Shown piece after piece: positions 1 through 31,247 of a DNA stretch of 64,000 nucleotides. The notes below the pieces were generated by a model that had not been told where the DNA came from, did no database searches, and was given only the letters and a program-made list of their open reading frames with translations. This DNA comes from Cyanophora paradoxa CCMP329 (taxonomy: Eukaryota; Plantae; Glaucophyta). The stretch's first letter is position 1. Every line of letters starts with the position of its first letter. The position numbers and the translations under genes are program-made. The stretch lies in contig QPMI01000130.1 in the NCBI GenBank assembly GCA_004431415.1, positions 1-64,000 of the forward strand, read 5' to 3'.

Positions 1-2
1 TT

Positions 3-583: not shown

Positions 584-693
584 GTTTGCGTTAGCTTAGA
601 GTGTGCTCAGCCTAGCGCTAGAAATATTTAAGGGCGCCCCACCGACTTCAGCTGACCTCGGGTGAGCGCTCAGGTGATTCAGTAAAACACGTT

Positions 694-958
694 TCAATTC
701 ACCATCAGATCCTCTACGACGGCTACACGAATCGAGCTAATCTTGACCTGCCTACAATGCACTTCTCTCTCCACAGTACGATCTCGTTCTTGAGGGGAGC
801 AGTTGAATCCAATCATACTCATCGCCCTTGCGGTGCTCCGACGAAATGTCGCGAAGGAGCTTGCAGAAGTAGAACGTGTTTCGGTCGAACTCATCGTCGT
901 ATATGACGTATGCGAAGATGCGAAGGTGAGACAGCAGGTGAAGTACGTGGGGATGCAC
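694..958 (-). CDS. Small hypothetical viral protein (likely frameshifted near 3' end)
   Basis: ORF 752-958 MHPHVLHLLSHLRIFAYVIYDDEFDRNTFYFCK has protein-like composition and sits in the gene-dense segment. Confidence 0.4.
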
Positions 959-1084
959 ATTCTTGATTTCTCTTGGCTTTGAAGTGTGAGGAGAGGGCGC
1001 GGCGGGGCTGCGGTTTTGAGGCCGTTCAGGTGAGGGTCAGGTGAGCGCTCAGCTGAGTTTCAGGTGAGGGCAACTTGAAAATTC

Positions 1085-1137
1085 GGCGTCATTTACGTCC
1101 GCGTCATTTACGTCAGCGTCATTTACGTCACGGAGTG
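1085..1137 (+). repeat. 3 tandem copies of the 15-bp unit GCGTCATTTACGTC(A/C)
   Basis: Directly visible. The same unit recurs at ~1953-1985 and inverted at ~2283-2316 and ~2493-2525. Confidence 0.9.
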
Positions 1138-1218
1138 GGACTCGCCCTGGCCCCCGGCCCAGGCTCGCCCGTAAAAAGGACTTGGACTTGGCGCCATTTT
1201 CTAAAGCTCTGCTGTACC

Positions 1219-1602
1219 ATGGAGCCCGCTATCTCCCAGCTAGTCTCTCAGGGCGCCAAGCTCGACAAGGCCCTGAACATCTACCTTCAGCTGATCGAGC
1301 TGGCCTGGCCCGAGCCAATGATAGCTCAGGCCTGCAAATCGCTCCACGTGGCGTTCGATGCGCCGTTCTCAGGTGACCCGGATCAGGTGACATCCTGGAC
1401 CAAGGAGGAGATAAAGGCCGACTTCGAGGCGCTTTTCTCATTTATGAGCAAGAAGTATGCCGAAATCGAAGCAGCTAAGGCCTCAGCAGCCGAAGGCGGT
1501 GAAGCCCCAGCCGAAGGCCCTGCCGGCGACCAAGGCACCGAAGTTCAAGGCGCTGGGCCCCTTGCAGAGGGCGAAGGCCAAGGCGGACCTGCGACCGCGT
1601 AG
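1219..1602 (+). CDS. Hypothetical viral protein (may continue via frameshift to ~1873)
   Basis: ATG 1219 (MEPAISQLVSQGAKLDKALNIYLQLIELAWPEP...) is preceded by TTTTCTAAAG at 1197. Confidence 0.55.
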   Translation: MEPAISQLVSQGAKLDKALNIYLQLIELAWPEPMIAQACKSLHVAFDAPFSGDPDQVTSWTKEEIKADFEALFSFMSKKYAEIEAAKASAAEGGEAPAEGPAGDQGTEVQGAGPLAEGEGQGGPATA

Positions 1603-1864
1603 GCCCAAGGACATAGCCAAGGAGGCAAGCGGCCACAGGCCGGACTGGCCGGCGCCGGCGCCCTACCGCTACCTCAAGCTGGACAAGAGCAACGATACCG
1701 GCTTCACCAGGAGGAGGTGGCCTGAGCCCCTCAGGTGGCTGGAGCAAGGGAGATCAAGTCCGGAGGCGTATCGAGCTAGCGCTAGCGCTGGGCGGCGGCG
1801 GCGGTGCAGACTTGGAGGAGCAGGCCCTGCTAGATACCATCAACTTGGGCAAGGTAGAGGCTGT

Positions 1865-2530
1865 GATATCTAGCTAGCTAGCGCTTGCTTAATTAACTCA
1901 ACTGAAGTTACCTGACATTTACCTGAAGGGTTGCGGAGGTTACCGAAGGGTCGCGTCATTTACGTCAGCGTCATTTACGTCACGGAGTTTGCCGGCGACT
2001 CGGGACTCGGGCCCAACTTCTCCCGTAAGTTCGAGACTTGGAAAAATAGGGTATCCCTATTACTTATCGTTATTATTATTACTATTATCGTTATTCACAT
2101 TGAATGAATGCTTAAATCTATAAAAGCTGTACCAGTATCGGTGGCTACTAGTACTAAGCTAGTAGTACTAAGTAGTACCAAGTAGTACTAAGTAGTACTA
2201 CGTAGTACTAGCGGTACTAGTAGCTACTGGTCGTGACGAACTTACCGGGAGAAGTTGGGCCGAGTCCGAGTCGCCGGCAACTCCGTGACGTAAATGACGC
2301 TGACGTAAATGACGCGACCCTTCAGGTTAATTAATTAAGCAAGCGCTAGCGCTAGCTAGCTAGATATCGATACCACCTAGCTAGTAGCACTAGGACACTA
2401 GGACACTAGGACACCGGGGGTACCCCCGCCGAGTTCAAGTCTCGAACTTACCGGGAGAAGTTGGGCCCGAGTCCCGAGTCGCCGGCAAACTCCGTGACGT
2501 AAATGACGCGGACGTAAATGACGCAAATCC
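1865..2530. repeat. Large imperfect inverted repeat (~1865-2033 vs ~2237-2368) around an AT-rich spacer, plus a further inverted arm copy at ~2436-2525
   Basis: Arm GGGTCGCGTCATTTACGTCAGCGTCATTTACGTCACGGAGTTTGCCGGCGACTCGG..CCCAACTTCTCCC..TAAGTTCG and its reverse complement. The spacer has TTA runs and ~10-bp TAGTACTAAG tandem units. Confidence 0.9.
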
Positions 2531-2592
2531 CATTGGAGCTACGTTCGCACACTCCGGACGCCTCCCACAATTTTCCAAGGTACCCAGCAAGC

Positions 2593-2880
2593 ATGGACTT
2601 CACCGATTGCGCAGGTATCAAGCAGGAGCCTGAGGACCTTCTCACCGCCGCCGCCTCGGCGCCCAAGCAGCGCCGCCGCCGCGGGCCCAAGTCCCTCTGC
2701 TCCGAGCCCGAGATCCTGGCGGCTCCGGCGCGCGGGCCGGAGACCGTGGACCTGACCCTGGAGGAGCCGGCGCGCGGCCCGCCGCGCCTTCTGATCCTTG
2801 CGGCGGCGGCGGCCGCGCTCTACTACGCCGCCCGGCGCCTGGCCCGCAGCTCTCGGGCCTGGTCCGGAACCTTTTCTAAG
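2593..2880 (+). CDS. Small hypothetical protein with C-terminal hydrophobic segment (true stop uncertain, likely frameshift)
   Basis: MDFTDCAGIKQEPEDLL...LLILAAAAAALYYAARR, preceded by AATTTTCCAAG. Confidence 0.45.
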
Positions 2881-2890
2881 TCCCTCCTCA

Positions 2891-3232
2891 ATGGAGGCCC
2901 TGCTAGATCTCATGGCCTTTGCGCTGCCCATCTTCTTCCTGGTGGGCCTCAGCCGCATGGAGCGCGAGGCGCGCCAGCCCGAGCGCGTCGAGCGCGGCCT
3001 CACCCCCGCAGAGCAGCGCAACCTCACCGAGTGGGACCTGGCGCTCATGGCCGGCCGCATGCTCGACGGCAACCGGCTCGAGCCGGGCCACCGCCTCAAG
3101 CTAGAGGACGGCGGCACGGCCCTCTGGGACGGCGAGGCCTGGAAGCACGATTCGACGGGCGAGCCGATGAAGCTGCTCGCCTCCGGCAACAAGTACTGGC
3201 GCGGCGACTCGATGGAGTTCCGGCGCCCGTGA
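2891..3232 (+). CDS. Hypothetical viral protein with N-terminal TM/signal anchor (113 aa)
   Basis: MEALLDLMAFALPIFFLVGLSR...; upstream TTTTCTAAG; clean ORF. Confidence 0.65.
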   Translation: MEALLDLMAFALPIFFLVGLSRMEREARQPERVERGLTPAEQRNLTEWDLALMAGRMLDGNRLEPGHRLKLEDGGTALWDGEAWKHDSTGEPMKLLASGNKYWRGDSMEFRRP

Positions 3233-3280
3233 TTGCTAGTGATTTTCTGGTCCCTCTTCTAACCCTTCTACCAGCAAAGA

Positions 3281-3565
3281 ATGCCCGACCCCTCGCCCGA
3301 CCCCGCCGCAGGTGCCGAGAGCGCGGGCAGCTCGGACGAGTACTCCGAGCTCACGGATCCCGACCCCGACGAGCCCGGCGACGCCTTCGCGACGGAGAAC
3401 GAGCGCTCCCTCATGCGCGTCTACGAGGCGCTGCGCGAGGCGATCTACTGGGAGGATCCCCGCCTGGGAACCCTGATGAACTTTGCAAAGTTCGCCGAGT
3501 TCATGTTCGCTATGACCGTGCCCTTCACCCGAGTCGTGCTCTGGGATAGGAACAGGAACTGGTAA
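3281..3565 (+). CDS. Small acidic hypothetical viral protein (94 aa)
   Basis: Acidic N-terminus followed by ENERSLMRVYEALREAIYWEDPRLGTLMNFAKFAEFMF, reminiscent of small conserved algal-virus proteins (by eye only). Confidence 0.65.
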   Translation: MPDPSPDPAAGAESAGSSDEYSELTDPDPDEPGDAFATENERSLMRVYEALREAIYWEDPRLGTLMNFAKFAEFMFAMTVPFTRVVLWDRNRNW

Positions 3566-3592
3566 AGGCATTGAATACAACAGTACAGAGCC

Positions 3593-3967
3593 CTACGAGC
3601 TAGAGCTGCTATCGCCCGAGTCCAGGCGCGCCTTCTTGGCCTTGGAGCGGCGGAGGCGGGAGACGTACTGCAGGCGCAGGTTGCGCACTAGGAGCTCGCC
3701 GGCCGTGGTGCCCGGCAGCCCGGGAACCGAGTCCGTGGGCAGCAGCTGTCCCTCGCGTATCGCCTTGTACGTCTTGCGCTTGTTGAATGCAACCTTCTCC
3801 GTATCCTCCGCGACCGGGACTTCCAGCGCCAGCGTGCGCTTGGCCTTCTTGACGGAGACTGCGTTCGCACGCTCCAGCTTCACTCCGGGCTCCAGGGGGG
3901 TAGGGGCGACTGCGTTCGCCACCGGGTTCTCAGCGAAGGAAACACGGGGGGAAGAGCCGCCGCGCAT
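3593..3967 (-). CDS. Basic hypothetical viral protein (124 aa)
   Basis: Clean K/R-rich ORF with upstream TATTTTCTAAAG on the minus strand. Confidence 0.6.
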   Translation of the reverse strand: MRGGSSPRVSFAENPVANAVAPTPLEPGVKLERANAVSVKKAKRTLALEVPVAEDTEKVAFNKRKTYKAIREGQLLPTDSVPGLPGTTAGELLVRNLRLQYVSRLRRSKAKKARLDSGDSSSSS

Positions 3968-3979
3968 GGTTCGCTCGCT

Positions 3980-4381
3980 TTACCTAGCCTTTAGAAAATA
4001 GTCGAGCTGGGCGCTCTGCAGGCGCGCGCCCTGGTAGGCGCCGCGCAGCTGCCACGCGAGCCAGATCGCAAGGAGCACCGCGGCGACGCCGGCGGCGATC
4101 TTGGCGTAGTGCCAGCCCTTCATCGCAAGCTCCGGCACGGCCGCAACCGCCTGCCCGACCTTCACGCCCGCGGCGCCCGTCCGATCGATTCCCGTCAGCG
4201 TGCTGCCGAGTGCGCCCGCGGCCACGTCGGCCCAGGGAAGCTTGCCGTCGTTCTTTAGGATGAGCTCGTTGTTCTTGCGCTCGATCGTCGTGCTGATCGC
4301 CGCGGCCAGGTTGAAGCTCGGCGGCGGCTGCGCGCTCTTCGGTCCGAAGACCTTGGTCAGCACGGCGTCCACCCAGCCCAT
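3980..4381 (-). CDS. Hypothetical membrane protein (133 aa, MG start, C-terminal TM)
   Basis: MGWVDAVLTKVFGPK...IAAGVAAVLLAIWLAWQLR; upstream TTTTTCGAAG. Confidence 0.65.
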   Translation of the reverse strand: MGWVDAVLTKVFGPKSAQPPPSFNLAAAISTTIERKNNELILKNDGKLPWADVAAGALGSTLTGIDRTGAAGVKVGQAVAAVPELAMKGWHYAKIAAGVAAVLLAIWLAWQLRGAYQGARLQSAQLDYFLKAR

Positions 4382-4407
4382 CTTTGACCTAGACTTCGAA
4401 AAACTAT

Positions 4408-4886
4408 CTAAATGACCAGGCCGCGCAGGTACCAGACCATCAGGAGCGAGCCGCCCAGCGCCACCAGCAGCGGCAGGTGCCCGTCCACGGCGCGCCGCAT
4501 GCGGTTGTCGCACAGCTCCTGGCAGCTCAGCCGGTTGGCCTCGTCGAAGTAGGCGCTCACGGCGTAGGGGCGGTCGGCCGGCGGGTGCAGCCCCCGGCCC
4601 AGGCACGGGTAGGCCTCCGCCTGGCGCCGCGCGGCCAGCGCCGCCGTCGCCGCGTGCGCCGCCTCCCTCTGCCCCGGCGCGATCGCCACGAGGGGCAGCG
4701 CCCCCACGCTCCTGCCCTTGCCCGCCCCCTTGATCGTTTTCAGCGACGGCGGCGCGGGATCCGCCGCCTTCACCCTGGCCCCTCCGCCGCCGCCCCGCCC
4801 TTAGCCCTCGCCGCCTCGCCGATCTTGCTGCATCGCGAATCCGATTTGAACACGGTGCACAGCAGCTTCTCTACCGCGCTCGACAT
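4408..4886 (-). CDS. Hypothetical Cys-containing protein with C-terminal TM (one frameshift)
   Basis: MSSAVEKLLCTVFKSDSRC... joins ORF 4408-4773 ending SCQELCDNRMRRAVDGHLPLLVALGGSLLMVWYLRGLVI. The 479-nt span implies a 1-nt indel. Confidence 0.55.
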
Positions 4887-4981
4887 CTTCGAACGTGTAA
4901 CGAGAATGAAGAAAATTTAAAAGGGAACGCCAACGGACTCGGAACTCGGAAAAGGGGGAGGGGAGAATGAACTTTGAAAAG

Positions 4982-5170
4982 TTAGCGCCCGGCGGGGCGC
5001 ATGCCGGCCGCCGCCTGCGAGGCGCCGCCGGGGGCGTAGAGGGACTTGGCGGCGTAGCCGAAGCCCACGCCTATGACCGCCGAGGCCGTGGGGGTGCCGC
5101 CGAGGAGCCAGGTGAGGGTCGCGGCCAGCGCTCCTAGCGAGTAGTGGGCAGGATAAGCTTCGAAGGCCAT
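4982..5170 (-). CDS. Small hydrophobic membrane protein (62 aa)
   Basis: MAFEAYPAHYSLGALAATLTWLLGGTPTASAVIGVGFGYAAKSLY; upstream TTTTTTCTCAA. Confidence 0.6.
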   Translation of the reverse strand: MAFEAYPAHYSLGALAATLTWLLGGTPTASAVIGVGFGYAAKSLYAPGGASQAAAGMRPAGR

Positions 5171-5219
5171 CGCGGGACCGAATTGAGGGAGGGTTGAGAA
5201 AAAATACCGCCTCGGGGCC

Positions 5220-6480
5220 TCAGTGGTGCAGGTGCCGGAAGCGCGCGTTGTCCTCGGCCTCCTCGCGCGCCGCCTGCTCCTCCGCCGCGTCGATCTCCGC
5301 CCGCGAGGCCTCCCGCGCCGCGGCCGACGCGTAGTCCTTGAGCACGGGCACGCGCCGGTAGCTGTAGCCGAGGCCCTTCGCCAGCCCGCCGACTCCGCCT
5401 CGAACGCCCGCCAGCGCTCCGAGGCCTCCGCCCCGGCGATCTGGCCGGCGCGGAAGCCGGAGTCCAGCTCGGCGCGGAAGGCGATGGTGGCCTGCAGGCG
5501 CTGGGCCCAGAGGGCCTGGCGCCGCTCCTCCGCCTCGCGCGCCTGGCGCGCCGCCAGCGCCCGCCGCTCGGCCTCCTGCTGGGCCCCGAAGCCCTGGATC
5601 GCGGTGAGGACGGCGCCGGGCCGGGGAGGGGCTGGGGCCGTCGGCGCTCGCGGAGGAGGCCGAGCTCCCGTAGCCGCTCGGGCCCGCGCCGCCGTTCGTC
5701 GGGTACCCTGCCCTTGGATCAGGAGGGGGGCGGGGGAGGGGGGTACGGGAGGGAAGGCGGGGGTACGCGGGCCGGACCTGGCGCGGCAGCATCTCGTCGA
5801 TGCGCTGCTGGCCGGGCGCTGCTGGGGGGCCGTGGCGGGGGGCTGGGCGGGAGGAAGGCCGGCGCCGAGTTGCGGGTGCGCTTGCCCTTGCCCTTGGTGT
5901 GGGGCTTGACGAGGAAGGGCCCGACGTCGGGCGCCGGGTCCTTGAACTGGGCGACGGGGATCGCGATCGCCTCCAGCGCCGGCTGGCTCTCGCCGAGGGA
6001 GAGCGGGGCCTTGGGACGATGCCGCGGATGTAGGTCTGCCAGACGCCGCCGAGCTTGTAGGAGTAGGGCGGCACCAGGAGCCGAAGCCGGCGAGGGTCTC
6101 GTCCAGCCGGCCGTTCTCGATGTCGGCGCCGACGGCGGCGGAGGTGTCGGGGCCCTCCGTGCGCGCGATGTACTCGACGATGCCCGCGACGCTCGTCATG
6201 TAGCCCTCCGTGTTCGGGGCGGCGACGTAGGTGGTGGGGTCGACGGCGCAGTGGGCGATGATGAAGCGGGTGAGGGGACAGGAGGCCGTCTCCTGCCAGA
6301 AGCCGAGGCGCTTCTCCCGCAGCCACACCGGCTCGAAGGCCTGGATGCAGGAGGCCTGGCGGCCACCTGCGGCGCGGGCGACGTTAGCGCGTACGACGTC
6401 GGGACGGGCGGGGAAGGTGCGCGGCTTCGAATCCAGCGGCTCCCCGCGAAGCTGCCTGCGGCCCAGTGAGCGTGCTGCGA
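5220..6480 (-). CDS. Hypothetical viral protein with C-terminal coiled coil; multiple frameshifts; start uncertain
   Basis: Protein-like segments alternate between minus frames: WLREKRLGFWQETASCPLTRFIIAHCAVDP.., YSYKLGGVWQTYIRG.., AQQEAERRALAARQAREAEERRQ.., ARFRHLHH*. Confidence 0.5.
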
Positions 6481-7510
6481 GCGGGAGGTGGGAGGGATTG
6501 GGCGGGCGGGCCTGCGTCCAGCGCTGAAACGTAGCTCCACTGATGCTATCCGCGATGCGCGTAGCCCGCGACTGGCCGCGGACAAGGGAGGGCTTAGCTA
6601 GGACAAGAACGGGTGTGGGGCGCGGGGCTGGAGGCGCGGGGAGGCGAGCCGGAGCCGCCGAATCGATGCGCGGGCTTGAGAACGAGATCTAGAAGCGTGC
6701 GCAAGTCGCCGCGAACGTCGGCTCGAGTTGCGGAAGGCGCGGCGGCCAATCTCGGCACCTGCTCAGAGACCAAATGTCAGCGGACGCGGGCGAATCGAGC
6801 GCGAGGTTGCGGGGCATGTTCTAGGTGCTAAATGCAAGGGATAGAGCGGCAAGAGAGCGAGCTGGCACCTGCGGGATGCGGCGGAGTGCTCCGGCTCGGG
6901 CGCCATCGAGCTTTCGAAGGTCCGCGGCCGGCGCGAGCGACCCTGCGCGTGGCGGCGTGAGTGCGGCGTCGAGAGAGCTTTCCAGCGCCCAAAATCTGAG
7001 GTCCGGAGCTAGCCGTGGTGCGGAGAAAGAGGTTGCGAAGTGAGGCGCACCTCCGAATCGAAAGGAGCGAGGCGGCGGCTCTCCGGGCTGAGCGGAATGC
7101 AAGCTAGTGCCTCTGGCAAGTGCTGCAAGGAGCGCTGGGCCCGGGCGCTGCGAGATGCGCTGCCCGGGCGCTTTTTTTCGGGTTGGGTACTGTGTTTTGA
7201 GTCGAAACACGTGGAGCAACCGCGTGAGCCCAAAACTTTCTGAGCTTAGGAGCAAAGGCGGTCGAGCGCTCGGCCGCGCAAGCTAGCTCCGGCGCGCTCT
7301 GCCTTCTCTCTACACGTGTCGCATTCACGTGCGCTCAAAACTTTCTAAGCTTCGGTCAAGCAAGGGGCTAGCGCTTCCGAAGTTCTACGCGCGCGCCTCC
7401 CCGTCCGCCGGGCCGACGGTCTGCGCGTCACATCGTCCGCTGCGCCAAGAAGGAGAGATCAAGACGGTGTCAACCGGGTCTAGTTGAGCGCTTAAGGTCG
7501 GACCAAAGCC

Positions 7511-7560
7511 TGTCCCGACCCTCCCAGATCTTTAAATTAATATCTCAGAAGGTCGAGACA
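7511..7560 (+). repeat. 50-bp imperfect palindrome (copy 1), upstream of helicase
   Basis: TGTCCCGACCCTCCCAGATCTTTAAATTAATATCTCAGAAGGTCGAGACA. Confidence 0.95.
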
Positions 7561-7650
7561 GCAGTCCAGACGTCGACTATAGCTAGCCAACAGACGTTGA
7601 CTAGCCTAGTAGATCTAGAATTTTCCAAGCCTAGCTATAGAGAGACGACC

Positions 7651-10600
7651 ATGGCAACCGGACGCGTGTCTCTCGACGTCGACGCCTTCCTGGCCCGTAT
7701 GCCCGGGCCCGGGTACAGCAGATAGATCTGAGCGAGCAGGAGTGCAGCTTTTTCGTTCGATTCCCTCTCGTCGAAGTCCAGAAGGCCTGCAGCCCGACCC
7801 TGGGGACGGCTTTCTGCGTCTTCCACCCGCCCTGCATCACCCCAGCCACTTCTCGGGTGCCGAGGATGAGACGAGCACCGCGGCAGCCTGCGCCTTTGCA
7901 ACCAAGTTCGGAGGCTTCACTTTCTCTCGCCCCTTGGATAATGGATTCAAGGCTGCCTACGTCCTACAGAGCCCGGAGGCTTGCGATCTCATGGCATGGT
8001 TCTTTGGGAGCTCGAGCGGCCTGGAGCTCGGTGTGGATGGCACGGGGGCTACGTTCTGCGGGGGCCGGCGCCCGGGCCGCGAGCGGAGCTCCTCCCCACT
8101 CCATCCAGAAGCTCGGCGCCCCGCGCTAAGCCCATCCCGGAGCCGGGCGCTCTCCTGGATTCGAGCCCAAGCCTGCCGGCCTTGGAGCGGCTCCTGGACC
8201 GCCTACGCAAGAACAAGGCGGTGAGGGACGAGATCTGGAAGGCGGGGCAGAGCTGCGCGCGGACCTTGGCCTGCACGACGCCCGCCGCGTTCAGCACCTT
8301 GGAGTCGAGCCCGACGGGTCCATCACCCTCGTCCTGGGCGGGAGTCAGCCGGGGGCGCCGGCGGCTCGAATCTCCATCCAGGCGCACGGTATTGAAGTCG
8401 AGCTCGAGGGGAGGGACCGGAGGGAGTCGGGCAGCGTGGCACAGACCCGCTATGTGACCGATCCCTCGCAGCCTGTCGCCTTCGACATTGCCCTCCCTCC
8501 CTCCTGATCGCGCTCGAGTCGACGGGCCTGGAGGCTTGCGTCAATGCAGTGGATGAACGCCACCTCTCGTGCAAGATCCTTACCTCCGCATTCGGGGCGC
8601 TGGAGCAGAACCCGAGATCCGCTCAGCCGCAGGTCGACGTCATCTGCTCGGGACTCAACACGGGGAAGACGCAGGCGCTGATCGATGCGTACCTGGACCC
8701 GGCCCTCGCAGGCGGCTGGCGAGTGATCCTCGTGACTTGCCGCCGGGCCTTCTCCCGCGACCTCAAGCGTCGCATTGATGCTGCGGAGTTGTCAAAGGAC
8801 GCCGTGCTTTACATGGACATCAAGAAGCCACCGGAGAGCTCAAAGGGATCGCATGGCAAGTGGGGCTTCCGCCATGAGGAGTGCAGGTGCGTCGTCATCA
8901 CATGGGACTCGCTGCACAAGGTGCTCGAGGACTGGGAGGGCTGGTCGACGGCGCCGCTACTGGTCGTGCTGGACGAGCTCTCCTCCCTCACGAAGCACCT
9001 CACCTCGAGCGGCACCCTCGAGCCCACCGGCCTGCACCTAGGTATGCGGTCAGTGCCTCGAAACGCGCGCTGCGTGGGCCTATGGCGCGGCGTGATGAAG
9101 CATCGCGCATCGTGGCGATGGACGGCTTCGTTCGGTCGGTCGATCTCGCGTACCTGGCAGAGTCGGCGCAGGAGGTCGGGGCGCGCCTGGGGCTCCTGTA
9201 CAACTCGCATCGCACCTGCGACTGGAAGATGCGCGTGTCAGACAGCCCGGCGCACGTCGAGGCGGACATCATGGTGCAGTGCCGACCTGGGCGCTCGCGG
9301 GCCATGATCATCGCGGAGACGCCGGCCAAGGCGATCGAGCTGCAGGAGAAGATTGCGAAGCAGGCGCTGGAGCAGCTCAGCCTGGGCGGCGCTCAGTACG
9401 TGACTCAGCTCGAGGCAGGGCCCGAGGACGGCAGCGGCGCACCGTTCACGATCGGGCTCATCGTTGGGCAGGCCAAGGAGAAGAGCGTGCGCTTCACGAA
9501 CGAGGGCCCAGTGCGCATCGTGTCGATCGATGTGTCTGAGGAGGGCGCGTACAAGGCCTGCGACGTGCTCATCGCAACTTCCGCGCTCGGGGCAGGCGTG
9601 GACTTTTCGGACGCGCACTTTGACAAGGTCTACGGCGTGTTCCAGGCGGAGCCCGCGCAGCTGGAGGCGGACGACATCGTGCAGCTGCTGTTTCGAGTCA
9701 GAAGGCTGCGCAAACGCAGCACGCCCGACGGGGAGCACCTGCTCGTCGCCGTGCGCAAGAACCGGACGCCCTCGGTTGCGGTCGGCGCGGCGGCTGCGCA
9801 CTGGCGTGAGAGCGACGACGACGAGAGCTCGGACGACATGCAGCGCTACCTGGACCTGAAGGCTAGCCACCGCGGGAGCCGCCGCGCCGGCATGCCCACT
9901 CGGCGCCTCGCAGTGGCAGCGCGCCTGCGGCTGATGTCGACCTGCGCGCTGATGAACGTGCAAGTCACGGAGGATCAAAACCCGAGCGGACCGAAGCAGG
10001 AGAAGGAGCAGCGGCTGCGCGAGATCAGGAGCGTGCTGGAGGCGGGCGCGCTGGAGCCCGTCGATCTGTGGAGCACGGTGCTGGCCTGGAGGCAGTCCCG
10101 CGAGTCTCTCGCTAAGCTGGACATCGAGAAGGTTGCTTCGCTTGCTCGCACGTCGATCGCCGCGTTCCTGGCCAAGGATCCGAGCGAGCTGACCGAAGGA
10201 GACGTCGCCTGGATGTGGGATTCGTTCTACTCCATCCCGCTCACTGCCGTGGTCACGCTGGTGCTGAAGCATGGCGCGGACGTTGCCGAGATCGTGCCTA
10301 CTGCTGAGCGCCTCAAGGTATCGAAGGTCGTCGCGCTGTTCAAGAAACTCTTCGGCTGGCGGGGGTATGGAAAGCTCGCGGGGCGTGCTCTGTGGTCGGA
10401 CGAAGCCTACGCGGCCCTGGCGTCGCCGGAGGGTCGGGAGGCGTACGCGGCTCTGCAGAGTCTGGACGAGCGCGCGCCCCGCTTCGATGCAGCGGACGGT
10501 GAGAAGAAGCGGCTCTCGCAGCAGTCTTGGCAAGTCATCAAGTACCTGCTGGAGAAGTACCTCGGAGTGAGACGCGCTTTCTCCGACGCGGACGGAGGGC

Positions 10601-10764
10601 AAATGGGCAGCCGAAAGCGACGCTACATCACGTGGGAGGAAGACATGCTCGACGACGCAGTAGAGCGCCAGGCTAAGCAGGCAAGGGCAGGCATGGCGCC
10701 AAGCTTCCCAGAGGTTTACAACGTTTTCTCCGACTGCTATGCTCTCATTCACAGGCGCGTGTGA
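7651..10764 (+). CDS. UL9/origin-binding-protein-like SF2 helicase with long N-terminal extension; frameshifted in 5' half
   Basis: Walker A VICSGLNTGKT, VILVTCRRAFS, ITWDSLHKV, Walker B LVVLDELSS, IVAMDGF, VLIATSALGAGVDF..HFDKVY and VQLLFRVRRL. This motif series is typical of the Herpes_ori_bp-like family. Split between ORFs 8549-9307 and 8881-10764. ATG 7651 follows AATTTTCCAAG. Confidence 0.85.
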
Positions 10765-10865
10765 TTGTCGGATGTCACAGTGTGGACTTCGCGAACGGGA
10801 TGCGCGTGCCAGTGTGTAAATACGAACGTGCGAATTCAAGTGACGTCATGCATATGATCAATGAA

Positions 10866-10915
10866 TGTCTCGACTTTTTGAGATATTAATTTAAAGATCT
10901 GGGAGGGTCGGGACA
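10866..10915 (-). repeat. 50-bp imperfect palindrome (copy 2), inverted relative to copy 1
   Basis: Reverse complement matches 7511-7560 at 48/50 positions. An additional half-site TGTCCCGACC lies at 10956. Confidence 0.95.
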
Positions 10916-11193
10916 TTGCGAGGGCGGACGAGAGTGAGGGCATGCACTCTCTATGTGTCCCGACCTTTTCTGAACAACTCATGATTGCCGTATCATCGAT
11001 CTGCATTTACTCACTTCGTTCTCTGTCGCTTGCACATGCGCGGTGTGGGATTACTAATTAGATCTAGTCTCCCTAGCCCTCTGCGGCCGCCTTCCTGCCC
11101 CCCTGCAAAGAGCAGCTCAACCAAATCCTGTGGGTCTGATTCATTGCAGACTCGCCTTCCCCGCCTGGGCCTGAGCTACACCAAGCTACGGTG

Positions 11194-11459
11194 AGTCCGA
11201 CCAAGAGACGTGTCCGGACCCTCCCTACTTTCTTTATAGATTATTGGAAAGGTCCGGACACTAGAGGAGGGAGGGCGTACATAAGTAGTCTGACCAAGAG
11301 ACGTGTCCCGACCCTCCCAGATCTTTAAATTAATATCTGAGAGGGTCGAGACACTAGAGGAGGGCGTACATAAGTAGTCTGACCAAGAGACGTGTCCCGA
11401 CCCTCCCAGATCTTTAAATTAATATCTGAGAGGGTCGAGACACTAGAGGAGGGCGTACA
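11194..11459 (+). repeat. Three tandem ~89-93 bp units, each containing the 50-bp palindrome (11211-11260 divergent, 11304-11353, 11393-11442)
   Basis: Unit GTCTGACCAAGAGACG-[palindrome]-CTAGAGGAGGGCGTACATAAGTA, directly visible. Confidence 0.95.
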
Positions 11460-12108
11460 ACTTAAACTCGCGCAGCGCCGCCTGCTCCTCGCTGAGGTTC
11501 TCTGACTTCATTCGATCGCTGTAGGGCTCGGGCGGAGTTCCAGCCTTCACGTGCGACCAAAATAGATGTAAGCACCGCCGCATGAGCTGAATGTACCTCT
11601 CGTCCCGTCTGACGTACCACGTTCGCACGCGCAGAGGCGTGAAGCAAAAAAGTTCGGCCCACTCGCGGCCCGTTATGTCTAAAAGTCCTTGCAGCTGCGT
11701 CATGTAATAGGTAGGAACCTTGTCGTAGAGTTCTTGTTTGTACGGACATTTTATTTCGAGTATGCGATCGTTTCCGATTAGCCCGTCCGGGCTCCCCGCC
11801 AGGAAGGGCAGTTCCTTATGTTCGTGCAATCCAGTATGTTGCACGTCCACGTTATTGTTCAACGTTTTGTAGAGAGAGACCGCGAAGGGCTCATAGTCAT
11901 GCCCGTAGGTTAGGGCAGGGTTGTCAAAGTTGTTTTCCTCCGCTATCCCGCTTAGCTCCGCCCACAGGCGGGCCCTGGATTTCCAGGGGTTTATACCGCA
12001 CGCAGCCGCAAAATTAGATGCAGTTAGTTTTTCACGGCGCGCCGCGTGCCACGCCGCGCTCCCCTGTTGTAAGTTCTCGCAAGTCTCGCAATCTGTATCG
12101 GTATGCAT
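11443..12108 (-). CDS. YqaJ-like viral recombinase / lambda-type alkaline exonuclease (221 aa, intact)
   Basis: QGSAAWHAARREKLTASNFAAACG, YGHDYEP, GSPDG, LEIKCP and YYMTQLQGLL are the canonical YqaJ PD-(D/E)xK motifs. Confidence 0.93.
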   Translation of the reverse strand: MHTDTDCETCENLQQGSAAWHAARREKLTASNFAAACGINPWKSRARLWAELSGIAEENNFDNPALTYGHDYEPFAVSLYKTLNNNVDVQHTGLHEHKELPFLAGSPDGLIGNDRILEIKCPYKQELYDKVPTYYMTQLQGLLDITGREWAELFCFTPLRVRTWYVRRDERYIQLMRRCLHLFWSHVKAGTPPEPYSDRMKSENLSEEQAALREFKLYALL

Positions 12109-12158
12109 AGCTTAGCCTCGCAGTAGCGTTTAGAATTTCTTGATGTGTGCGAATGCAT

Positions 12159-12888
12159 ATGTCTGATAATCAGACTACCCTCCCACCGCTATCGGGGTAC
12201 ATCCGAGATTACACTAAGCAGGTAAACGGGCTGATCGGCTGGGTGAAAGAAGAGATCCCCAATACAATGCGAGACGGGGGCATGGCTGCGACGTATTTGC
12301 GCGATGTGGCACGCAGAGGCCTCGGGTCCAGGGTAGACATCCGAACGTATGAGCCGCCGGTGTACGAAATCGAACACAGGGACGACATGGGCAGGGTTCG
12401 CGATGAACTTCGCAAGCTCTGGTGGGCGTTCGGCTCGCGCAAGAGCCCCATGACCTACCTGCCCAAGACGTTCAGAGAGTTATACTGGATCTCTTCCTGA
12501 ATGCGGGCACTCGCACGGAGATCATCAATCGCCCGCTCAATATTTTGAAGCACTACTTCCAAGGCTTCGTTCACCACGCCAAAAACAAGGAAGATGAATG
12601 GGTGGTACCCTATGTCCCCCATCGGATTTGATCCCTGAAGGATGGGACGAAGAACAAGACAATATGGAAGAACGGTTCAAGAGATACAAGTATAGAAAAC
12701 TGACGCCTGCCGGCCCACCGTACGGCCCACCGGCGCCCACGGCGGAGCAGCGCCAAGAGATACTGCGGGAGGGTCAGATTCGCAGGTGGATGGAGTACAG
12801 CAATGATCCGACGAGCTGGTCGCCAGACGAGGCCGAGCTGCGGAAGCGCGCGAGGCTGCCAGGCCCTCGATACCCCGACCGCGAGTAG
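12159..12888 (+). CDS. Hypothetical viral protein, paralog A (two frameshifts)
   Basis: Three overlapping ORFs (12147-12500, 12422-12631, 12598-12888) stitch into one protein containing LRKLWWAFGSRKSPMTYLPxDVQRVILDLFL. Confidence 0.55.
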
Positions 12889-12922
12889 GGGTACAGGTAT
12901 AAATTCTCACCGAGCCGCGAGC

Positions 12923-13488
12923 ATGGCGCGAACACGCGAGTCCGACGTGCTGTACAACAACGGCGACCTGGACGGGGAGATTCGACAGCGGAACGTGGAC
13001 TTGGAGGATGCGAACGCAGTGCTGGAGGGGAGGCGCACGTCCTCAGGGGGCGGCTCGCCGGCGGAGAACTTCATGGAGCGCGTGCTCTACCTTGTGCGCT
13101 GGATTAGAGACGAATTCCACGACGAGCGAGAGCTCCCGGACAGGGAGATGATCAGGGCCGCGGGCTTGATGGTATGACAGAGAACCCGAGATCGTACCTG
13201 AGGCGCGAACGCAGGGATCTGAACGGCGATTGGGCCGACCTGCAAGCGCTGTGGACGGCCTTTGCGAACCGCAAGAGCCAGATCCTTGCCCTGCCCGCGC
13301 AGGTACAGCAGCGTATCATTGATTTCGTAGCCCCCTGGCGCGACGAGTCCCTCCAGCAGCCATTCATGCAACCACGCTTCCTCTCCGGGCTCAGGAGCGC
13401 GTTCTTCCACTTGGCCGTGAGCAGCGACCGGTATTTCACACCGCAGAGGATCGTTCACGGCGAATTCGGCATACCCCCGAGTGGCTGA
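12923..13488 (+). CDS. Hypothetical viral protein, paralog B (frameshift or ATGA-coupled pair at 13174-13177)
   Basis: MARTRESDVLYNN... plus ...LQALWTAFANRKSQILALPAQVQQRIIDFV; upstream AAATTCTCAC. Confidence 0.55.
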
Positions 13489-14247
13489 ATTTTGCCACCG
13501 TACCCCCTTCCCCACCCCGCCTCGAAGGCCCCCCCTCCCCTACCCCCGAGCAGCGTGAGTCACTCAAGCGTCAGAGGGAGGTACGCGAATGGATGGACGA
13601 CACCAGCCACTGGGTACAGGGCGAGGCCGAATTACGCAAGTTCGGAAGGTTCGGGCAGTAACAGCGGGGGGTACAGCATTCAGTTAGAGCCTGAGCATCG
13701 TTAGAGGCCGGGAGGCCCCCCGAGGGGTACACCGGCTGTTACTCCCCGCGTCGGTTAGTGCTAGCCCCCCTGTTAGTGCAGCGTGTACCTGATCGCAATA
13801 TAACACCCAAACCTCCGCGACGCGTGACTCATGCAACCTCCGAGGGTTAACAATGCATTGACAGCGAAGGGGCAAGCTCGAGAGCTCAACGCTTCACAAA
13901 GGCCCACATATATATGCGTATGATCATGATCCCCAAATTTTCGAAGTTGCCGGGATGCGCAAGGGTACCCCAGCTGGCGGTAAACGTACATGCGCATGCG
14001 GCCGTCTCTGTTCGTAGCCGCTCTCTCGCCGGCGCATTCGCAGCCCCGCTTTCTCTCCTCGGCATTTGGCAGCAGCAGCCTCGGCGTTTGTCCAGCGCGT
14101 CGTGTTGCGTCGTCTTCGACGTCGACGCTTCCTGTCAACAAATCCAACTTCTTCTGTCAATCCGCGCGGCGGCGTTTTGGCGGCGCGCGATCTGCGGCAA
14201 AAGTTGCCGATTGCAAGTTGGACGCGCGGCAAAAGTTGCCGATTGCA

Positions 14248-15552
14248 ATGGCAGCAGCGGAGATCAGGCTGATTCCCATGTTCGAGGTAAGTAGTGAAGC
14301 TTGCCGAAAGGGGCGGCTTGGGTCGATCTGCTGACTGTTCTGTGCAGGACAATTACGCGTACCTCATTACCGTGATTTCTTTTGCTCGATGTCACATCTA
14401 TGAACAGCGCGACTCACGTTGGTGGGGCAGTGTGCAGTAACGAACGAGGCGGCCCTCGTTGACCCCGCGCAGCCGAAGGCGGTCCTCGAGGTGCTGAAGG
14501 CGGAGACGCGTCCAGTGCGCCTGACGACCCTCCTCACGACGCACAAGCACTGGGATCACGCGGGCGGCAACGAGGAGATGGCCCGCGCGATCCCAGGCCT
14601 CCGTGTGGTCGGGGGCGAGATGGAGGACACCCCCATCCCCGCGTGCACCCTCGGCGTCAAGGCGCGCCGCTCGGCCCTGCACCCCGCACTGCGCTGAGTC
14701 GGCCGCAGGAGGGCGACGTCGTCACCGTCGGCGCGCTTCGCTTCAGAGTGCGGCCCCCTGGCCCAGCCCGCGGCCGGACCGCGCCAAACAACGGCATAAG
14801 GCTCAACAACACTTGCAGGTTCTGTTCACGCCCTGCCACACGCGGGGCCACGTCCTATACTTCCTCGAGAACTGCTCCCCGCCGGCCCTCTTCTCGTGCG
14901 CCCCGCCGGCGGCGCGGCGCCTGCTCGGGCTGAGCGGGCAGCAGCGGTGACACGCTCTTCCTGGCCGGCTGCGGGCGCTTCTTCGAGGGGGACGCCGCCG
15001 ACATGCACCGCGCCATGTACGAGGCGCGCCGCCCCTCCCCGCCCTCGCCGCTCTCGCAGACCCCCCGCTCCCCAGGTCATCGGCCGCCTCCCGCCCGAGA
15101 CGGAGGTGTACTGCGGGTGCGCCCGGCGGGGCCGGCGGGACGGCGGGGCGCGCGGCGAGCGGGCGGGGGCGCAGGCACGAGTACTCGGTGAACAACCTGC
15201 GCTTCGCGGTGCACGTGGAGCCCGGGAACGCGGCGGCCGCGGAGAAGCTCGAGTGGGCCAAGCAGCAGCGGGCGGCGGGGCGGCCCACCATCCCCTCCAC
15301 CCTCGCCGAGGAGAAGGTCCGCCCGCCCGCCCCGCCCGCTCGCCCCGCGGCCGCGCGCTGCAGCAGCGGCCGCGCGCAGAGGTACAACCCGTTCATGCGC
15401 GTGCACGAGGAGTCCCTCGCCCGCGCAGTGAGGTGCGCGCCTCCCCGCCCGGCCCCGGGGCGCACGGGGGCGGGGCTGAGGCATGTGCCAGGGCGGAGGG
15501 GCCTGTCGCTGTCATGCGCGCCGTGCGCGCCGCCAAGGATGCCTTCAAGTAG
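14248..15552 (+). CDS. GLO2: Hydroxyacylglutathione hydrolase (glyoxalase II), ~10 exons
   Basis: Spliced [60 protein letters not shown] and KDAFK*. Confidence 0.93.
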
Positions 15553-15797
15553 GACCCGGCCCCGTGCTCCCTCGCCCCACCCCCTCCCCGCCCCACGCTA
15601 GCGGCCGTGTGCGGGCATCGGAGGGTCGATTGGGGGGGACGGGAGACTGCGCGCGGGGTGGGGGCGACGGGAGGCGGGGGCGGGGGCGGCGGGGCGGTGC
15701 GGTAGAGGAAGCTGTGCTGCAGCTGGGATGGCACTTGGGGGGCGAGGCGGGGACGGGGCCGGAGGGGGCGGGGCTGGGCAGGGCGGGGTAGGGCCGG

Positions 15798-16850
15798 TCA
15801 CATGCGCTCCTTCATGCGGCTGGCGATGGTGCGGAGCTTGCTGTAGACCTTGCCCGGCGGGCTCCCTGCCGGCACCCGTCGGCGGCGCGGGGCGAGCGGG
15901 GCGGCGCGCCGACAGGCAGGCGGACCGAGGATGAGGGAGACGACGGCGTCTCGGGCCGTCTTGATGTTGTTGAAGGAGCCGAGGATGTGAATGTGCCTGC
16001 CCCGCCGGCTCGCCGCGAGCGCAGGGGGCGTGGCGACGCGGCGCGCACGAGTCGGCGAGCACGATGCGCGTCTTCGTCGTGTTCTCGATGGCAAACTTCG
16101 TCTTGCCGCCTTTCCCCGCGATGCGCCCAATCGCCCGCGAGAGGTGGTCCCCCTGCAGGTTCTTCACTGCGCCCCGCCCCACTTCAGCGCCGGCGCCGCC
16201 GCGGGAGCGCCGGCAGGGCCGCACCGTCCTTAATCTCAAACGTGTCTATGAAAAGATCGTCCAGCCGCAGCAGCGCCACCGCGTCCTTCGTGGCCCCGCC
16301 CGTCAGTGGCGCGCCGACCCGCCGCCGGGCGCCGGCGCACGTCGAGATCGAAGCCGAGGAGGAACGCCTTCACAAAGTCCGCGCTCTTTTGCAGCGCCCC
16401 CGGGTCCGTTGTGTGCTCCGAGGTCTGGCGCAGACCCCGCGTCGTCCGCAGCTCCCGGCCGAGCACGGCGCCGCGGGCCCCGCACCTTCAGCTCCACCGC
16501 GCGACTCTTGAGGTTCATGCGGATCTGCAGCTTCATGTGTTCCACGACCGGTGTATATATCTTTAACCAGTTCTCTTTCAGCGGCGTGTAGCGGTGCGCA
16601 GGCACGGGGACTCTCCGGAACTCGGACTTGCCGCCCTGCGGATTCGCGTGAGTGGGGCGGGCAGAGAGCTGGGGCGCGTATTCCCGATCTAAAGCTGGGG
16701 GCTGCCAACGGGAGTGCGCACCCGCATTTGCTTGGCCGTGAGCGCTGGGAACTTCGCGACATCGCGGCCCTCGCCAGACCCAGACGCCTCCTGCTGCTCG
16801 GCGGCCTCCTCAACCTCGTCAGCTTCGATAATCTCCTCGTCCTTGCTCAT
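15798..16850 (-). CDS. PNO1: Pre-rRNA processing KH-domain protein PNO1/DIM2, multi-exon
   Basis: PAHRYTPLKENWLKIYTPVVEHMKLQIRMNLK, ALQKSADFVKAFLLGF, GDHLSRAIGRIAGKGGKTKFAIEN and GSPPGKVYSKLR. Confidence 0.95.
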
Positions 16851-16902: not shown

Positions 16903-19257
16903 ATGAACAAGTTTTTTTGGATCCGGGATACAGCAAACAGACCCGCCTCTCCTTCCCGCTCCAAGCAAGCGCAGAGGCCAGCAGCGCAGGCACTTCCCAG
17001 CAGCCATTTTCCAGCGCTGAACTGCTGCACCTCGTGCGACCCGGGCGACGTGCGGCTTCCCCCTCCTGCGCCCGCTCTCCGCCGGCCCCGACCGCTGGCG
17101 GGTCGCGCAGGAGGGCGTGCTGTGCGGCCTGCTCAACGCGCGCCCCGACCTCCGCCCGTCGGCCTACTTCAAGGTCCGTTCGCCCCCCCATGGCACCGCC
17201 AGCCCAGCCGCGCGCCCAGCCCGCCCCGCCAGCGCCCCTTCACTTCTCTCCCCATCGCCCCTTCCTTTTCCTCTTGTGATCCCCGGCCGCGGGGTCGATG
17301 GCGCAGAGCACCATCGTGGCGTTGAGCCGGGCCATTGAAGACGAAATCCTGGCTCTCTCGTCGAAGGAGGAGGAGTGGATGGTGATCGGCAAGTTCGGGT
17401 CGAGCGGGAACTTCCACCTGCGCGGGCGCGGGGGCATGCCGAAGGCGGCCAAGCTCGTCGACCGCCTCTACCTGCTGGAGGGGGAGGACATCGCGCGCGC
17501 CCCGAACGAGGCTGCGGCCGCCAAGGCCGGCTTCCACCACATCCCGTACTCGGCGGGCCAGATCCTGCCCCGCGAGTGGTTCTTCGTCGTCGTCTCGCCG
17601 AGCTTCACGGCCTGCGTGGTGGCCACGAAGCGGCGCGAGGACCCCATCGACCTTACCAAGCGCTTCGACGGCGTCTGGAGCCGCGAGCCGTCGGTGTGCG
17701 CGCAGGCGGCGCTCGTGGCGTTCGAGCGCCTGCGGGCGTACCGCCCGGACCTCTCCCGCCAGCTCGACGAGGACGAGGCCCGCTTCAAGCTCCGCGCCCG
17801 CGCCCGCCTCAGCCGCCGGACCAGCGCGGCCGAGTCGCGGCGGAGGCGGCAGGGGGACAGCACGGCGTTCGCGGAGCGGCTGGTGCAGAACATGACGGCG
17901 AGCAACTACAAGCTGGTGAAGCTGCTGCGGGTGCAGCAGGCGATGGCGAAGGAGCTCGACCGCTTGAACCAGGCCCGCACCAACTCCATGAAGATCATCG
18001 CCCACGAGCTCCGCACCGTCCGCCCCGCCCCGCCCCGCCCCGCCCCGGCCCGCGCGGCGGGGGCATGACGGGCCGGGCAGCCGCTGTCGACGATCCGGGT
18101 GTGCATCGAGAGCGCGGCGACGGAGGACCTGTCGAGCGGGGTGCAGGCGGCGATGGCGCGGACGGCGCTGGAGGACCTGGACCGCCTCTGCAAGCTCATC
18201 GACGACTTCTTCTTCCTCGACCAGCTCGAGCGCGGCGAGGTCGAGTGGCTCGTCGAGGTCCCCGCCCCGCCCCCCGCCGCCCCCGCCCCCGCCCCGCCCT
18301 CACGCCGCGCTGCGCAGCCGGTGTCGGTGCAGGAGTGCGTGCAGGAGGCGGTGGCGGGGGTGTACCGGCGGCGCGGCGCGGAGCGGGCGCTGCCGAAGAT
18401 CACGACCTCGCTGGACCTCGCGTGGCCCGTCGTGCGCGCCGATGGCCAGGGCCTCTCCCGCGTCCTCCACTCCCTCCTCGACAACGCCGTCCGCGCGCGC
18501 CCTCCCCCGGTCCCGCCGGCCCCGGCGACGGGGGCGGGGGCGGGGCGCAGATCAAGTTCGCGCCGGAGGCGGGCGGGGTGATCCGCGTGGCCTCGCAGAT
18601 GCGGGGGCGCGAGGTCGAGCTCGTCGTCTCCGACAACGGCTGCGGCATCGAGCCCGAGCTCCTCGACCGCGTCTTCGGTGCCCCGCCCCTCGGCCCCGCC
18701 CCCCCCCCCCCCCCCCCGCCCCCCCCGGCCCCCCGGCCCCCCGCCCCGCTCGCCGCCTGACGCGCCGGCGGCAGACCTGTACTGGCAGGAGGACGCGTAC
18801 CTGCGGCGGGCGGCGGGGGGCGTGGGGCGGGGCCTGCCGATCGCGCGGCGCATCGTGGAGTCGTTCGGGGGGCGCATCTGGGTGGAGTCGCAGGGGCGCG
18901 GCATGGGGACCTCGGTCCACTTCACGTGCGAAGGGCCCCTCCCGCCGCAGAGCAGCCGCTCACGCCGCCGCCGCCGCGCAGCTGCCCCTCGACATCACCC
19001 TCTCCATCCAGGAGGGCATCCGCGCCGCCGCCAAGGCCGCCGCCTCCCTCTCCGCCCCCGCCGCCCCGCCCAGGCCTCCCCGGCCCTCCACGAGGCCCCC
19101 GCGGCCACCGCGCGCCGGCCCAGGCGAGCGCCCCTGGACCCCGCCGTCGCCGCCCCGCGAACCCGGCGCTCCCGCGCGGCCCCGGCGCCCGCGGAGCTCC
19201 CCGAGGCCCCCCGCCGCCCCCGCCCGCCGCGGCCGCCGCAAGCAGGGCGTCGCCTGA
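16903..19257 (+). CDS. DICT-sensor histidine kinase of cyanobacterial type, multi-exon
   Basis: Exons 16903-17049, 17111-17173, 17307-18017 and on give VLCGLLNARPDLRPSAYFK|STIVALSRAIEDEIL..EWFFVVVSPSFTACVV..FDGVWSREP (DICT). H-box AHELRTPLSTI, N-box LLDNAIKF, G1 VSDNGCGI, G2 GVGRGLPIARRIVE. Confidence 0.85.
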
Positions 19258-31085: not shown

Positions 31086-31247
31086 GCTTTGGCCCGTCCC
31101 CGAGTTCCAATTCTCTCCCAAAATTTTATCGCCGGCCTCGCCGAGTCGCTCGTCGCGATTTTTCGCTCTCGCTCTTCTGTATTTTCTGTACATGTATTTC
31201 TGTAGTGTATGTGCTCGAGTGTGGTTTTCAAGAAGGACAGGGATGCA

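Follow-up and report, generated by a model that had tools for sequence, protein, structure and literature searches.

The origin-binding protein (OBP, UL9) of HSV-1 (herpes simplex virus 1) binds two inverted boxes around an AT-rich spacer through its C-terminal domain, with a third box forming a hairpin upon opening, and its residues 536-851 are assigned to DNA binding (PMC12543377). UL9-like primase-helicases of the mimivirus R8/African swine fever virus pF1055L type occur in mriyaviruses (PMC11253617) and, accompanied by a YqaJ-like nuclease, in ariadnaviruses (10.64898/2026.08.29.747986), and UL9-like helicases are also already known from some Polinton-like viruses (PLVs), whose replicases are interchangeable (PMC12220804). 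Here, we describe a locus of the glaucophyte alga Cyanophora paradoxa CCMP329 in which a gene for a UL9-like helicase is bracketed and followed by 50-bp palindromes. The stretch analyzed (hereinafter the window) comprises 64,000 nucleotides (positions 1 to 64,000 of the forward strand of contig QPMI01000130.1, assembly GCA_004431415.1) and begins within the multi-copy virus-like element that carries this gene. By analogy with the HSV-1 origin oriS, we propose that the palindromes are replication origins and binding sites of the helicase, a reading to which we give about an even chance of being correct.

The locus resembles the HSV-1 oriS/UL9 pair in combining a superfamily-2 (SF2) helicase, whose C-terminal helical domain weakly matches the fold of the OBP DNA-binding domain, with two inverted 10-bp boxes about 50 bp apart, an AT-rich centre, and a third, weak box upstream. 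HSV-1 also has a lambda-type exonuclease, UL12, which is paralleled by the YqaJ exonuclease gene next to the helicase. Unlike in HSV-1, the box sequence is unrelated, the recognition motif RVKNL is missing, the protein has about 290 extra N-terminal residues, the five sites cluster, partly in tandem, round the helicase gene itself, and the whole resides in an integrated, multi-copy, non-herpes element of an alga. The homologous regions (hr) of baculoviruses likewise consist of tandemly repeated units, each about 90 bp long and containing an imperfect palindrome, but they are spread round the genome and act with other proteins, whereas the present units are confined, in the 13.9 kb of the element that are seen, to the flanks of one gene. 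Like this element, the mriya- and ariadnaviruses, small or nucleus-dependent DNA viruses that infect protists, encode an SF2 helicase that is related to UL9 and extended at its N-terminus; however, their proteins carry an intact archaeo-eukaryotic primase (AEP) domain, none of which was detected here by Pfam or PHROG, and no cognate origin is described in the available portions of PMC11253617 and 10.64898/2026.08.29.747986. The glaucophyte PLVs are comparable as multi-copy endogenous elements of the same host group, but the searched text of PMC12220804 holds neither a palindromic origin nor an antisense RNA.

Palindromic sites around the helicase gene

Copies of the palindrome were located by a sliding match over the window (Table 1). 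A preliminary description had placed two of them on the flanks of the helicase gene, the right one inverted, and a half-site beyond, all of which we recover at these positions; of the three further tandem copies that it listed, those at 11304 and 11393 stand, whereas the one at 11211 is a diverged variant rather than an equal copy. The left palindrome lies 91 bases before the helicase ATG and the right one 101 bases behind the stop. The tandem array (11194-11459) has a period of 89 with 2.9 copies, the start-to-start spacings being 93 and 89.

Table 1. Coordinates of the features discussed, as positions in the 64,000-nucleotide window.
Feature	Position	Strand	Description
50-bp palindrome, left copy	7511-7560	+	two inverted 10-bp boxes separated by 30 bp whose centre is AT-rich
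50-bp palindrome, inverted copy	10866-10915	-	48/50 identical to left copy
Half-site, single 10-bp box	10956-10965	+	first 10 bases exact; 14/19 across the arm
Diverged 50-bp palindrome	11211-11260	+	32/50; boxes changed in mirror image; other AT-rich centre
50-bp palindrome inside 89-bp tandem unit	11304-11353	+	48/50
50-bp palindrome inside 89-bp tandem unit	11393-11442	+	48/50; touches the YqaJ stop codon
GTCNGAC mini-box (7 bp)	7497-7503		15 bases 5' of left palindrome; position like that of Box 3
UL9-like SF2 helicase gene	7652-10764	+	about 1040 codons; encodes an N-terminal domain not assigned to any known family, the helicase core, and a C-terminal domain that is helical
Element-wide upstream motif TTTTCNAA	7621-7627	+	30 bases 5' of helicase ATG; putative core promoter, distinct from the palindrome
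Spliced antisense RNA across helicase gene	7518-10908	-	11 introns in run X17; range is contig cover, not mapped ends
Antisense introns 1-6	8203-8264, 8334-8387, 8528-8583, 8644-8692, 8781-8831, 9038-9153	-	
Antisense introns 7-11	9382-9442, 9558-9618, 9688-9738, 9794-9849, 9942-9991	-	
YqaJ/lambda-type exonuclease gene	11443-12108	-	convergent with helicase; Pfam YqaJ E 1e-29; PHROG RecE-like exonuclease E 8e-41
Right-hand part of multi-copy virus-like element	1-13890		leaves the window at its left edge; intronless short ORFs, shared upstream motif, high contig depth

An oriS-like geometry, namely two inverted boxes of about 10 bp at a fixed distance round an AT-rich spacer, is present in all five full copies: each spans exactly 50 bp (10 + 30 + 10), 15 of its central 18 bases are A/T, and the 19-bp arms pair at 15, 13, 14, 17, and 17 of 19 positions. 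Although 18 of its 50 bases are changed, the 11211 copy retains the span, the AT content, and both 10-bp boxes, the changes being mirrored between the two. What is conserved is therefore the two inverted boxes, their spacing, and a readily melted centre. For comparison, a hand count on the oriS oligonucleotide printed in PMC12543377, with assumed box limits, puts Box 1 to Box 2 at 51 bp and the start of Box 3 at 15 bases before Box 1. The GTCNGAC mini-box stands at -15 or -17 of every full copy (four exact, one with a single mismatch) and is predicted to pair with box 1 in two of the five; it is not present 5' of the half-site.

The end box, TGTCYSGACY, a pattern derived from the very copies counted, occurs 12 times in the 64 kb against 0.69 ± 0.79 expected, a count reached by none of 100 shuffles. 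Eleven of the 12 fall within 7511-11442 around the helicase gene and the remaining one at 33373; the sites are not dispersed through the host DNA of the window but sit on the flanks of one gene, in tandem on the right and, in some copies of the element, also on the left. On that left side, a joint from 7562 to 7499 recurs in all three DNA runs with a duplicated unit of about 86 bp, which indicates that the left site is tandemly doubled in some copies of the element. Short-read contigs further have a C at 10875, restoring the box of the right palindrome. The 89-bp unit of the right-hand array extends into the end of the YqaJ coding sequence, and the stop codon of this gene (11443-11445) directly adjoins the final palindrome; since the last five codons and the stop are found duplicated within the unit (11260-11300 and 11353-11392), the array probably grew through duplication across the end of this gene.

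The 50-bp site was not found in metagenome contigs, viral contigs, or 81 YqaJ-bearing loci. Rfam gave no match. A protelomerase or tyrosine-recombinase site was considered and dropped, because the centre lacks palindromic symmetry and the spacer is longer than in such sites.

The helicase and its distant relatives

In the window the helicase gene contains about six -1 frameshifts and no single open frame. Short-read contigs from the DNA runs insert single letters across this stretch (at least eight gaps in 7533-9003, among the rows listed), for which reason the frameshifts are probably long-read errors. The earlier designation of the product as UL9-like is borne out for the helicase core and weakly so for the C-terminal domain. 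The core matches Pfam Herpes_ori_bp (PF02399) with E 7e-7 and 28.1 bits against a cut-off of 20, and of five homologs three exceed the cut-off, one falls under it, and one has no match. A profile of 11 sequences compared with the PDB gave HSV OBP as the four best of five matches, weakly (E 0.04), with the aligned parts covering motifs I/Ia and V/VI, and the neighbors by ESM in the Atlas belong to Herpes_ori_bp and CyRepA1 clusters (0.96-0.97). When the C-terminal 308 residues were modeled alone (predicted local distance difference test score, pLDDT, 55) and compared with 48,161 chains, the first rank went to residues 583-807 of HSV-1 OBP (Z 5.3, root-mean-square deviation 3.9), in an alignment of 129 residues that is the longest among the best 50 rows. 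Among viral models the best named matches were, from the giant viruses, an origin-binding protein and a helicase-primase of Bodo saltans virus (E 0.03-0.04). Together, these results point to a distant UL9-like helicase whose C-terminal region is its probable DNA-binding domain.

Pfam and PHROG gave no primase match in the N-terminal pieces or in the proteins P0015 and P0004. The host on record for the helicase models is Cyanophora paradoxa; no relatives were found in viral contigs or phages, in proteins clustered at 90% and 50% outside the host, or at the 81 YqaJ-bearing loci (25-41% identity). The sole non-host match among the clustered proteins, P0011, is an insect repeat protein and was judged a chance hit, and among plasmids there were only three matches, all of them short and weak, with proteins of the CyRepA1/DUF3854 kind.

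Four helicase types in one backbone

Four types, comprising 14, 4, 4, and 6 models, can be told apart among the 28 helicase models from 21 named contigs, with 88-100% identity within a type and about 44-80%, over long stretches, between types, whereas the backbone around them is 91-99% identical. As four divergent types sit in a near-identical backbone, gene exchange is the simplest reading, and the helicase gene appears to have been swapped between lineages. Backbone genes lie no more than eight accession numbers from the helicase model at at least 11 of 22 loci (seven by contig name, four by number only), the other 11 being loci with untraced neighbors rather than solo copies. The type with 67% identity to that of the window adjoins a YqaJ 97% identical to one that lies beside a helicase of the window's type, and an ORF identical to the window's at 128 of 129 positions (three contigs); the 75-80% and 50% types were traced at one locus each, with neighbors 98% and 92% identical. 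The stretch 6328-7536, left of the first site, equals the gene in depth, and the exchanged module may hence extend past the sites. In run X11 a loose end near 11088 suggests other sequence to its left in some copies, which makes this a possible right boundary of the module.

Weighing the readings of the sites

Were the palindromes origins, binding and origin firing would follow the HSV-1 model: helicase dimers would bind the two inverted 10-bp boxes through their C-terminal domains and strain the AT-rich centre, and an opened hairpin might arise with the aid of the weak third box that lies shortly upstream. The neighboring YqaJ exonuclease would support recombination-dependent copying, which in turn would account for the tandem growth of the sites and for the exchange of helicase types. 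Several observations weigh against this proposal. The full-length helicase model is poor (pLDDT 40) and supports only an SF2 fold, with OBP fifth among many SF2 helicases; the structural match of the C-terminal domain is weak and lies no more than one Z unit from unrelated helical proteins; a sequence profile of the C-terminal alignment has no OBP match; and RVKNL is not in any of the four aligned helicase types, which instead have a conserved GVR[RK]..RKR[RK] stretch near the C-terminus. The HSV model is itself debated, UL9 being reported to loop oriS only inefficiently (PMC13458718), and the virus class of the element is deduced indirectly, its capsid and packaging genes presumably lying beyond the window. 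To these is added a strand bias: all six arm positions with a transition mismatch give G-U pairs on the same strand only, RNA folding of each copy is more favorable for that strand (-27.7 vs -15.6, -22.2 vs -9.6, -29.1 vs -22.3, and -33.3 vs -25.9 kcal/mol), and it is in this orientation that transcripts of the helicase gene, of YqaJ, and of the antisense strand would each run into a site at the 3' end. The same bias favors an alternative in which the palindromes act chiefly at the RNA level, forming hairpins for the termination or processing of transcripts in the manner of the mimivirus hairpin rule. The favored orientation, the reverse one, lies 101 bases past the helicase stop and 0 bases past that of YqaJ, hairpin-directed polyadenylation is described in Mimiviridae (PMC4402537), and the predicted transcript ends would be 10866 for the helicase mRNA, the array for that of YqaJ, and 7511 for the antisense RNA. 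However, among 16 element ORF ends scanned, a stem of at least 19 pairs stands behind only helicase and YqaJ, the other 14 being without one, whereas the Mimiviridae rule would call for hairpins behind most genes; with the helicase having its own upstream motif besides, the sites are neither general promoters nor general terminators. A conserved high-affinity arm with G-to-A drift of the G-rich weaker arm would yield the same mismatch pattern, the fixed 50-bp span, third box, and tandem copies are needless for a terminator, and contigs end at the sites in DNA runs too and hence do not prove RNA ends. We consider a chiefly RNA-level role unlikely, though it is the strongest competitor of the origin reading.

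Binding by the helicase might instead serve autoregulation, with the sites as operators and as YqaJ-aided recombination handles of the exchanged module rather than as origins. The four types in one backbone, the adjoining YqaJ gene, and the inclusion of its 3' end in the tandem duplication agree with such a role, as does the reported tethering of two oriS molecules by UL9, perhaps for recombination (PMC13458718). On the other hand, even the diverged copy retains an AT-rich centre, as would be expected for melting, and the depth of 6328-7536 allows a module exceeding the sites; we hold this alternative to be improbable. A further proposal of the preliminary description, that the inverted pair at 7511 and 10866 makes the 3.4-kb helicase cassette invertible or separately mobile (or constitutes terminal repeats of a host transposon), draws on the two inverted copies enclosing exactly one gene, and on model P0008, in which the upstream ORF and the helicase are joined on one strand while they are on opposite strands in the window, so that some rearranged copy or misassembly must exist. 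The order in P0008 is nevertheless inconsistent with a simple flip between the two sites, and model P0016, at another locus, continues into the antisense strand of YqaJ and thereby keeps the orientation of the window, although short contigs break at the palindrome repeats and limit this test of inversion. The depths of left flank and gene are about equal in all three DNA runs (2921 vs 3215, 3451 vs 3824, and 214 vs 224), no target duplication surrounds 7511/10915, Pfam and PHROG scans found no recombinase or transposase domain, and backbone neighbors accompany the helicase wherever they could be traced, with no solo copy among the loci listed. Inversion or independent mobility is thus not supported, and we rate it as very improbable. 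In favor of the origin proposal stand the UL9-like protein, the fixed span with its AT-rich centre, the third box, the retention of boxes, span, and AT content in the diverged copy, the clustering of 11 of the 12 boxes round this gene, and the tandem copies.

Spliced antisense RNA across the helicase gene

Run X17 contains 11 joints with CT..AC ends between 8201 and 9989, which correspond to GT-AG introns on the minus strand (Table 1), and for this reason was taken as RNA, a label that none of the runs containing the sequence has in its record; such ends are expected by chance in about 1.5% of joints, and among the joints listed none with CT..AC ends occurs in the DNA runs X1, X11, and X14. 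The introns, which come from this one run of one study, are 49-62 bases long apart from one of 116, and donors such as GTGCGC and GTCCGC are shared with the neighboring host gene. A 12th skip (9222-9289) was excluded for its lack of CT..AC ends. With the introns removed, the longest open stretch of the antisense strand is 363 codons against a median of 367 in 2000 random intron sets (P 0.54), and the longest ATG frame is 329 (P 0.10 in the same sets); as no frame exceeds those of random sets, a protein product was rejected and the RNA is probably non-coding. The X17 contigs span 7518 to about 10908, although contigs show neither RNA ends nor levels and those of the DNA runs break at the same repeats. 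Six presumed RNA runs from five studies contain 0.55-0.64 of the words vs 0.87-0.89 in 14 other runs, a share that falls between the estimates for unspliced (0.73) and fully spliced (0.51) RNA and is a hint only.

In the integrated state, the host machinery splices this transcript, as seen in the one run, and the RNA may repress the initiator gene. In herpesviruses, too, non-coding transcripts that are spliced or overlapping are known close to origins and replication genes (PMC10541914), but here a multi-intron antisense RNA spans the entire gene of an initiator, which is placed between two candidate origins of an endogenous element. There is, however, nearly an even chance that the RNA stems from host read-through into a single rearranged or truncated copy, spliced generically as a long GC-rich transcript and with no viral role. 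One X17 contig leaves the element at 10727, directly behind a minus-strand AG, for sequence absent from the window, which might be a first exon lying outside the element or belong to a truncated copy elsewhere in the genome, so that part of the RNA may derive from one rearranged copy. Moreover, short introns are numerous in the host, whose transcription units are compact and overlap (PMC6704402, section 3.1), and the introns are seen in one run only. Against read-through, another X17 contig passes 10875 to about 10908, into the right palindrome, and there is no sense-strand intron among the joints listed.

The element and the surrounding host DNA

The virus-like element in a protist that the preliminary description posited is indeed present. 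It meets host DNA near 13890, beyond which lie intron-rich host genes, and the adjacent host contig starts at 13887. The contigs with the helicase gene have 42-45, 45-47, and 69-117 times the depth of that host contig in the three DNA runs (roughly 40-70-fold overall), contig-depth ratios being a rough measure, and the same element genes recur in conserved order on many host contigs, as befits a multi-copy chromosomal insertion. The motif TTTTCNAA or a close variant stands 5' of most element ATGs, at 0.79 per kb of element vs 0.14 per kb of host DNA, and is a candidate viral promoter; it occurs at 1197, 2571, 2872, 3998, 4402, and 7621, 19-31 bases 5' of six ORF ATGs. No integrase was found among the 26 ORF pieces scanned, one element end being within the window, and no capsid, HUH, or VLTF gene is in the window, which holds only the right-hand part of the element. 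The element is probably a Polinton-like virus. Supplementary Table S6 of PMC12220804 lists 156 glaucophyte Polinton-like elements with mixed replicases, and PF02399 is listed in none of these 156, vs two elements of Chlorophyta, three of Ochrophyta, nine of Rhizaria, and 15 of Streptophyta (29 elements); either the helicase was missed there (weak match, frameshifts) or the present element is outside that set. Methylated giant-virus-like insertions are also described in Cyanophora paradoxa (PMC12344493).

Elsewhere in the element, a second repeat hub (1080-1140 and 1860-2525) consists of direct and inverted copies of a 15-bp unit whose core is TGACGT-like, a 73-bp inverted pair (1953-2025 and 2452-2524), and AT-rich 10-bp tandem repeats (2144-2228), and a joint from 1859 to 2384 on opposite strands occurs in three DNA runs; this hub might serve as a further origin or as an enhancer, or be a segment capable of inversion. 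The region 3980-5220 encodes small minus-strand ORFs with hydrophobic stretches, one starting with MG, a possible myristoylation signal, and another cysteine-rich with a C-terminal anchor; they have no clear family match and are possibly virion membrane proteins. A frameshifted minus-strand ORF at 60-582 (within 1-590) is presumably similar to viral single-strand DNA-binding proteins, for which Pfam, PHROGs, and the Atlas gave no support.

On the host side, two genes adjoin the element end (14270-16830), which by their reading are presumably glyoxalase II-like (plus strand) and PNO1/KRR1-like (minus strand). Long inverted repeats at 16928-17294 and 36223-36574 (96-99% identical, 19 kb apart) enclose low-GC stretches and other ORFs; perhaps they mark the two termini of a large transposon, or else part of a gene has been duplicated. 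The stretch 53000-57000, with 50% GC and several AT-rich imperfect palindromes (55450-55960, 56290), is possibly another mobile element, and GC-rich tandem arrays lie at 31104-32524 (period 141, 8.3 copies) and 35041-35617 (period about 40, 12.6 copies).

Implications for replication in small protist DNA viruses

For small DNA viruses of protists that lack a protein-primed polymerase, Polinton-like ones among them, it is largely unknown how replication starts. Our literature search, whose coverage was incomplete, so that an earlier account may exist, returned no report of an element of this kind with oriS-like sites, helicase types, or antisense splicing. The present locus places a candidate initiator and its candidate sites side by side in a cultured alga, with four natural variants through which site specificity can be tested directly, as can the question whether oriS-type origin recognition predates the herpesviruses. 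The spliced antisense RNA, for its part, is a possible means of quieting dozens of intact viral copies besides DNA methylation. More speculatively, and with a low probability in our estimation, the locus might be organized as a plasmid-style cassette, in which an initiator is set between paired origins of its own, comes in four exchangeable types akin to incompatibility groups, each perhaps with its own site, and is silenced upon integration by a host-spliced antisense RNA running from origin to origin. If true, this would amount to a herpes-like latency switch in an algal Polinton-like virus.

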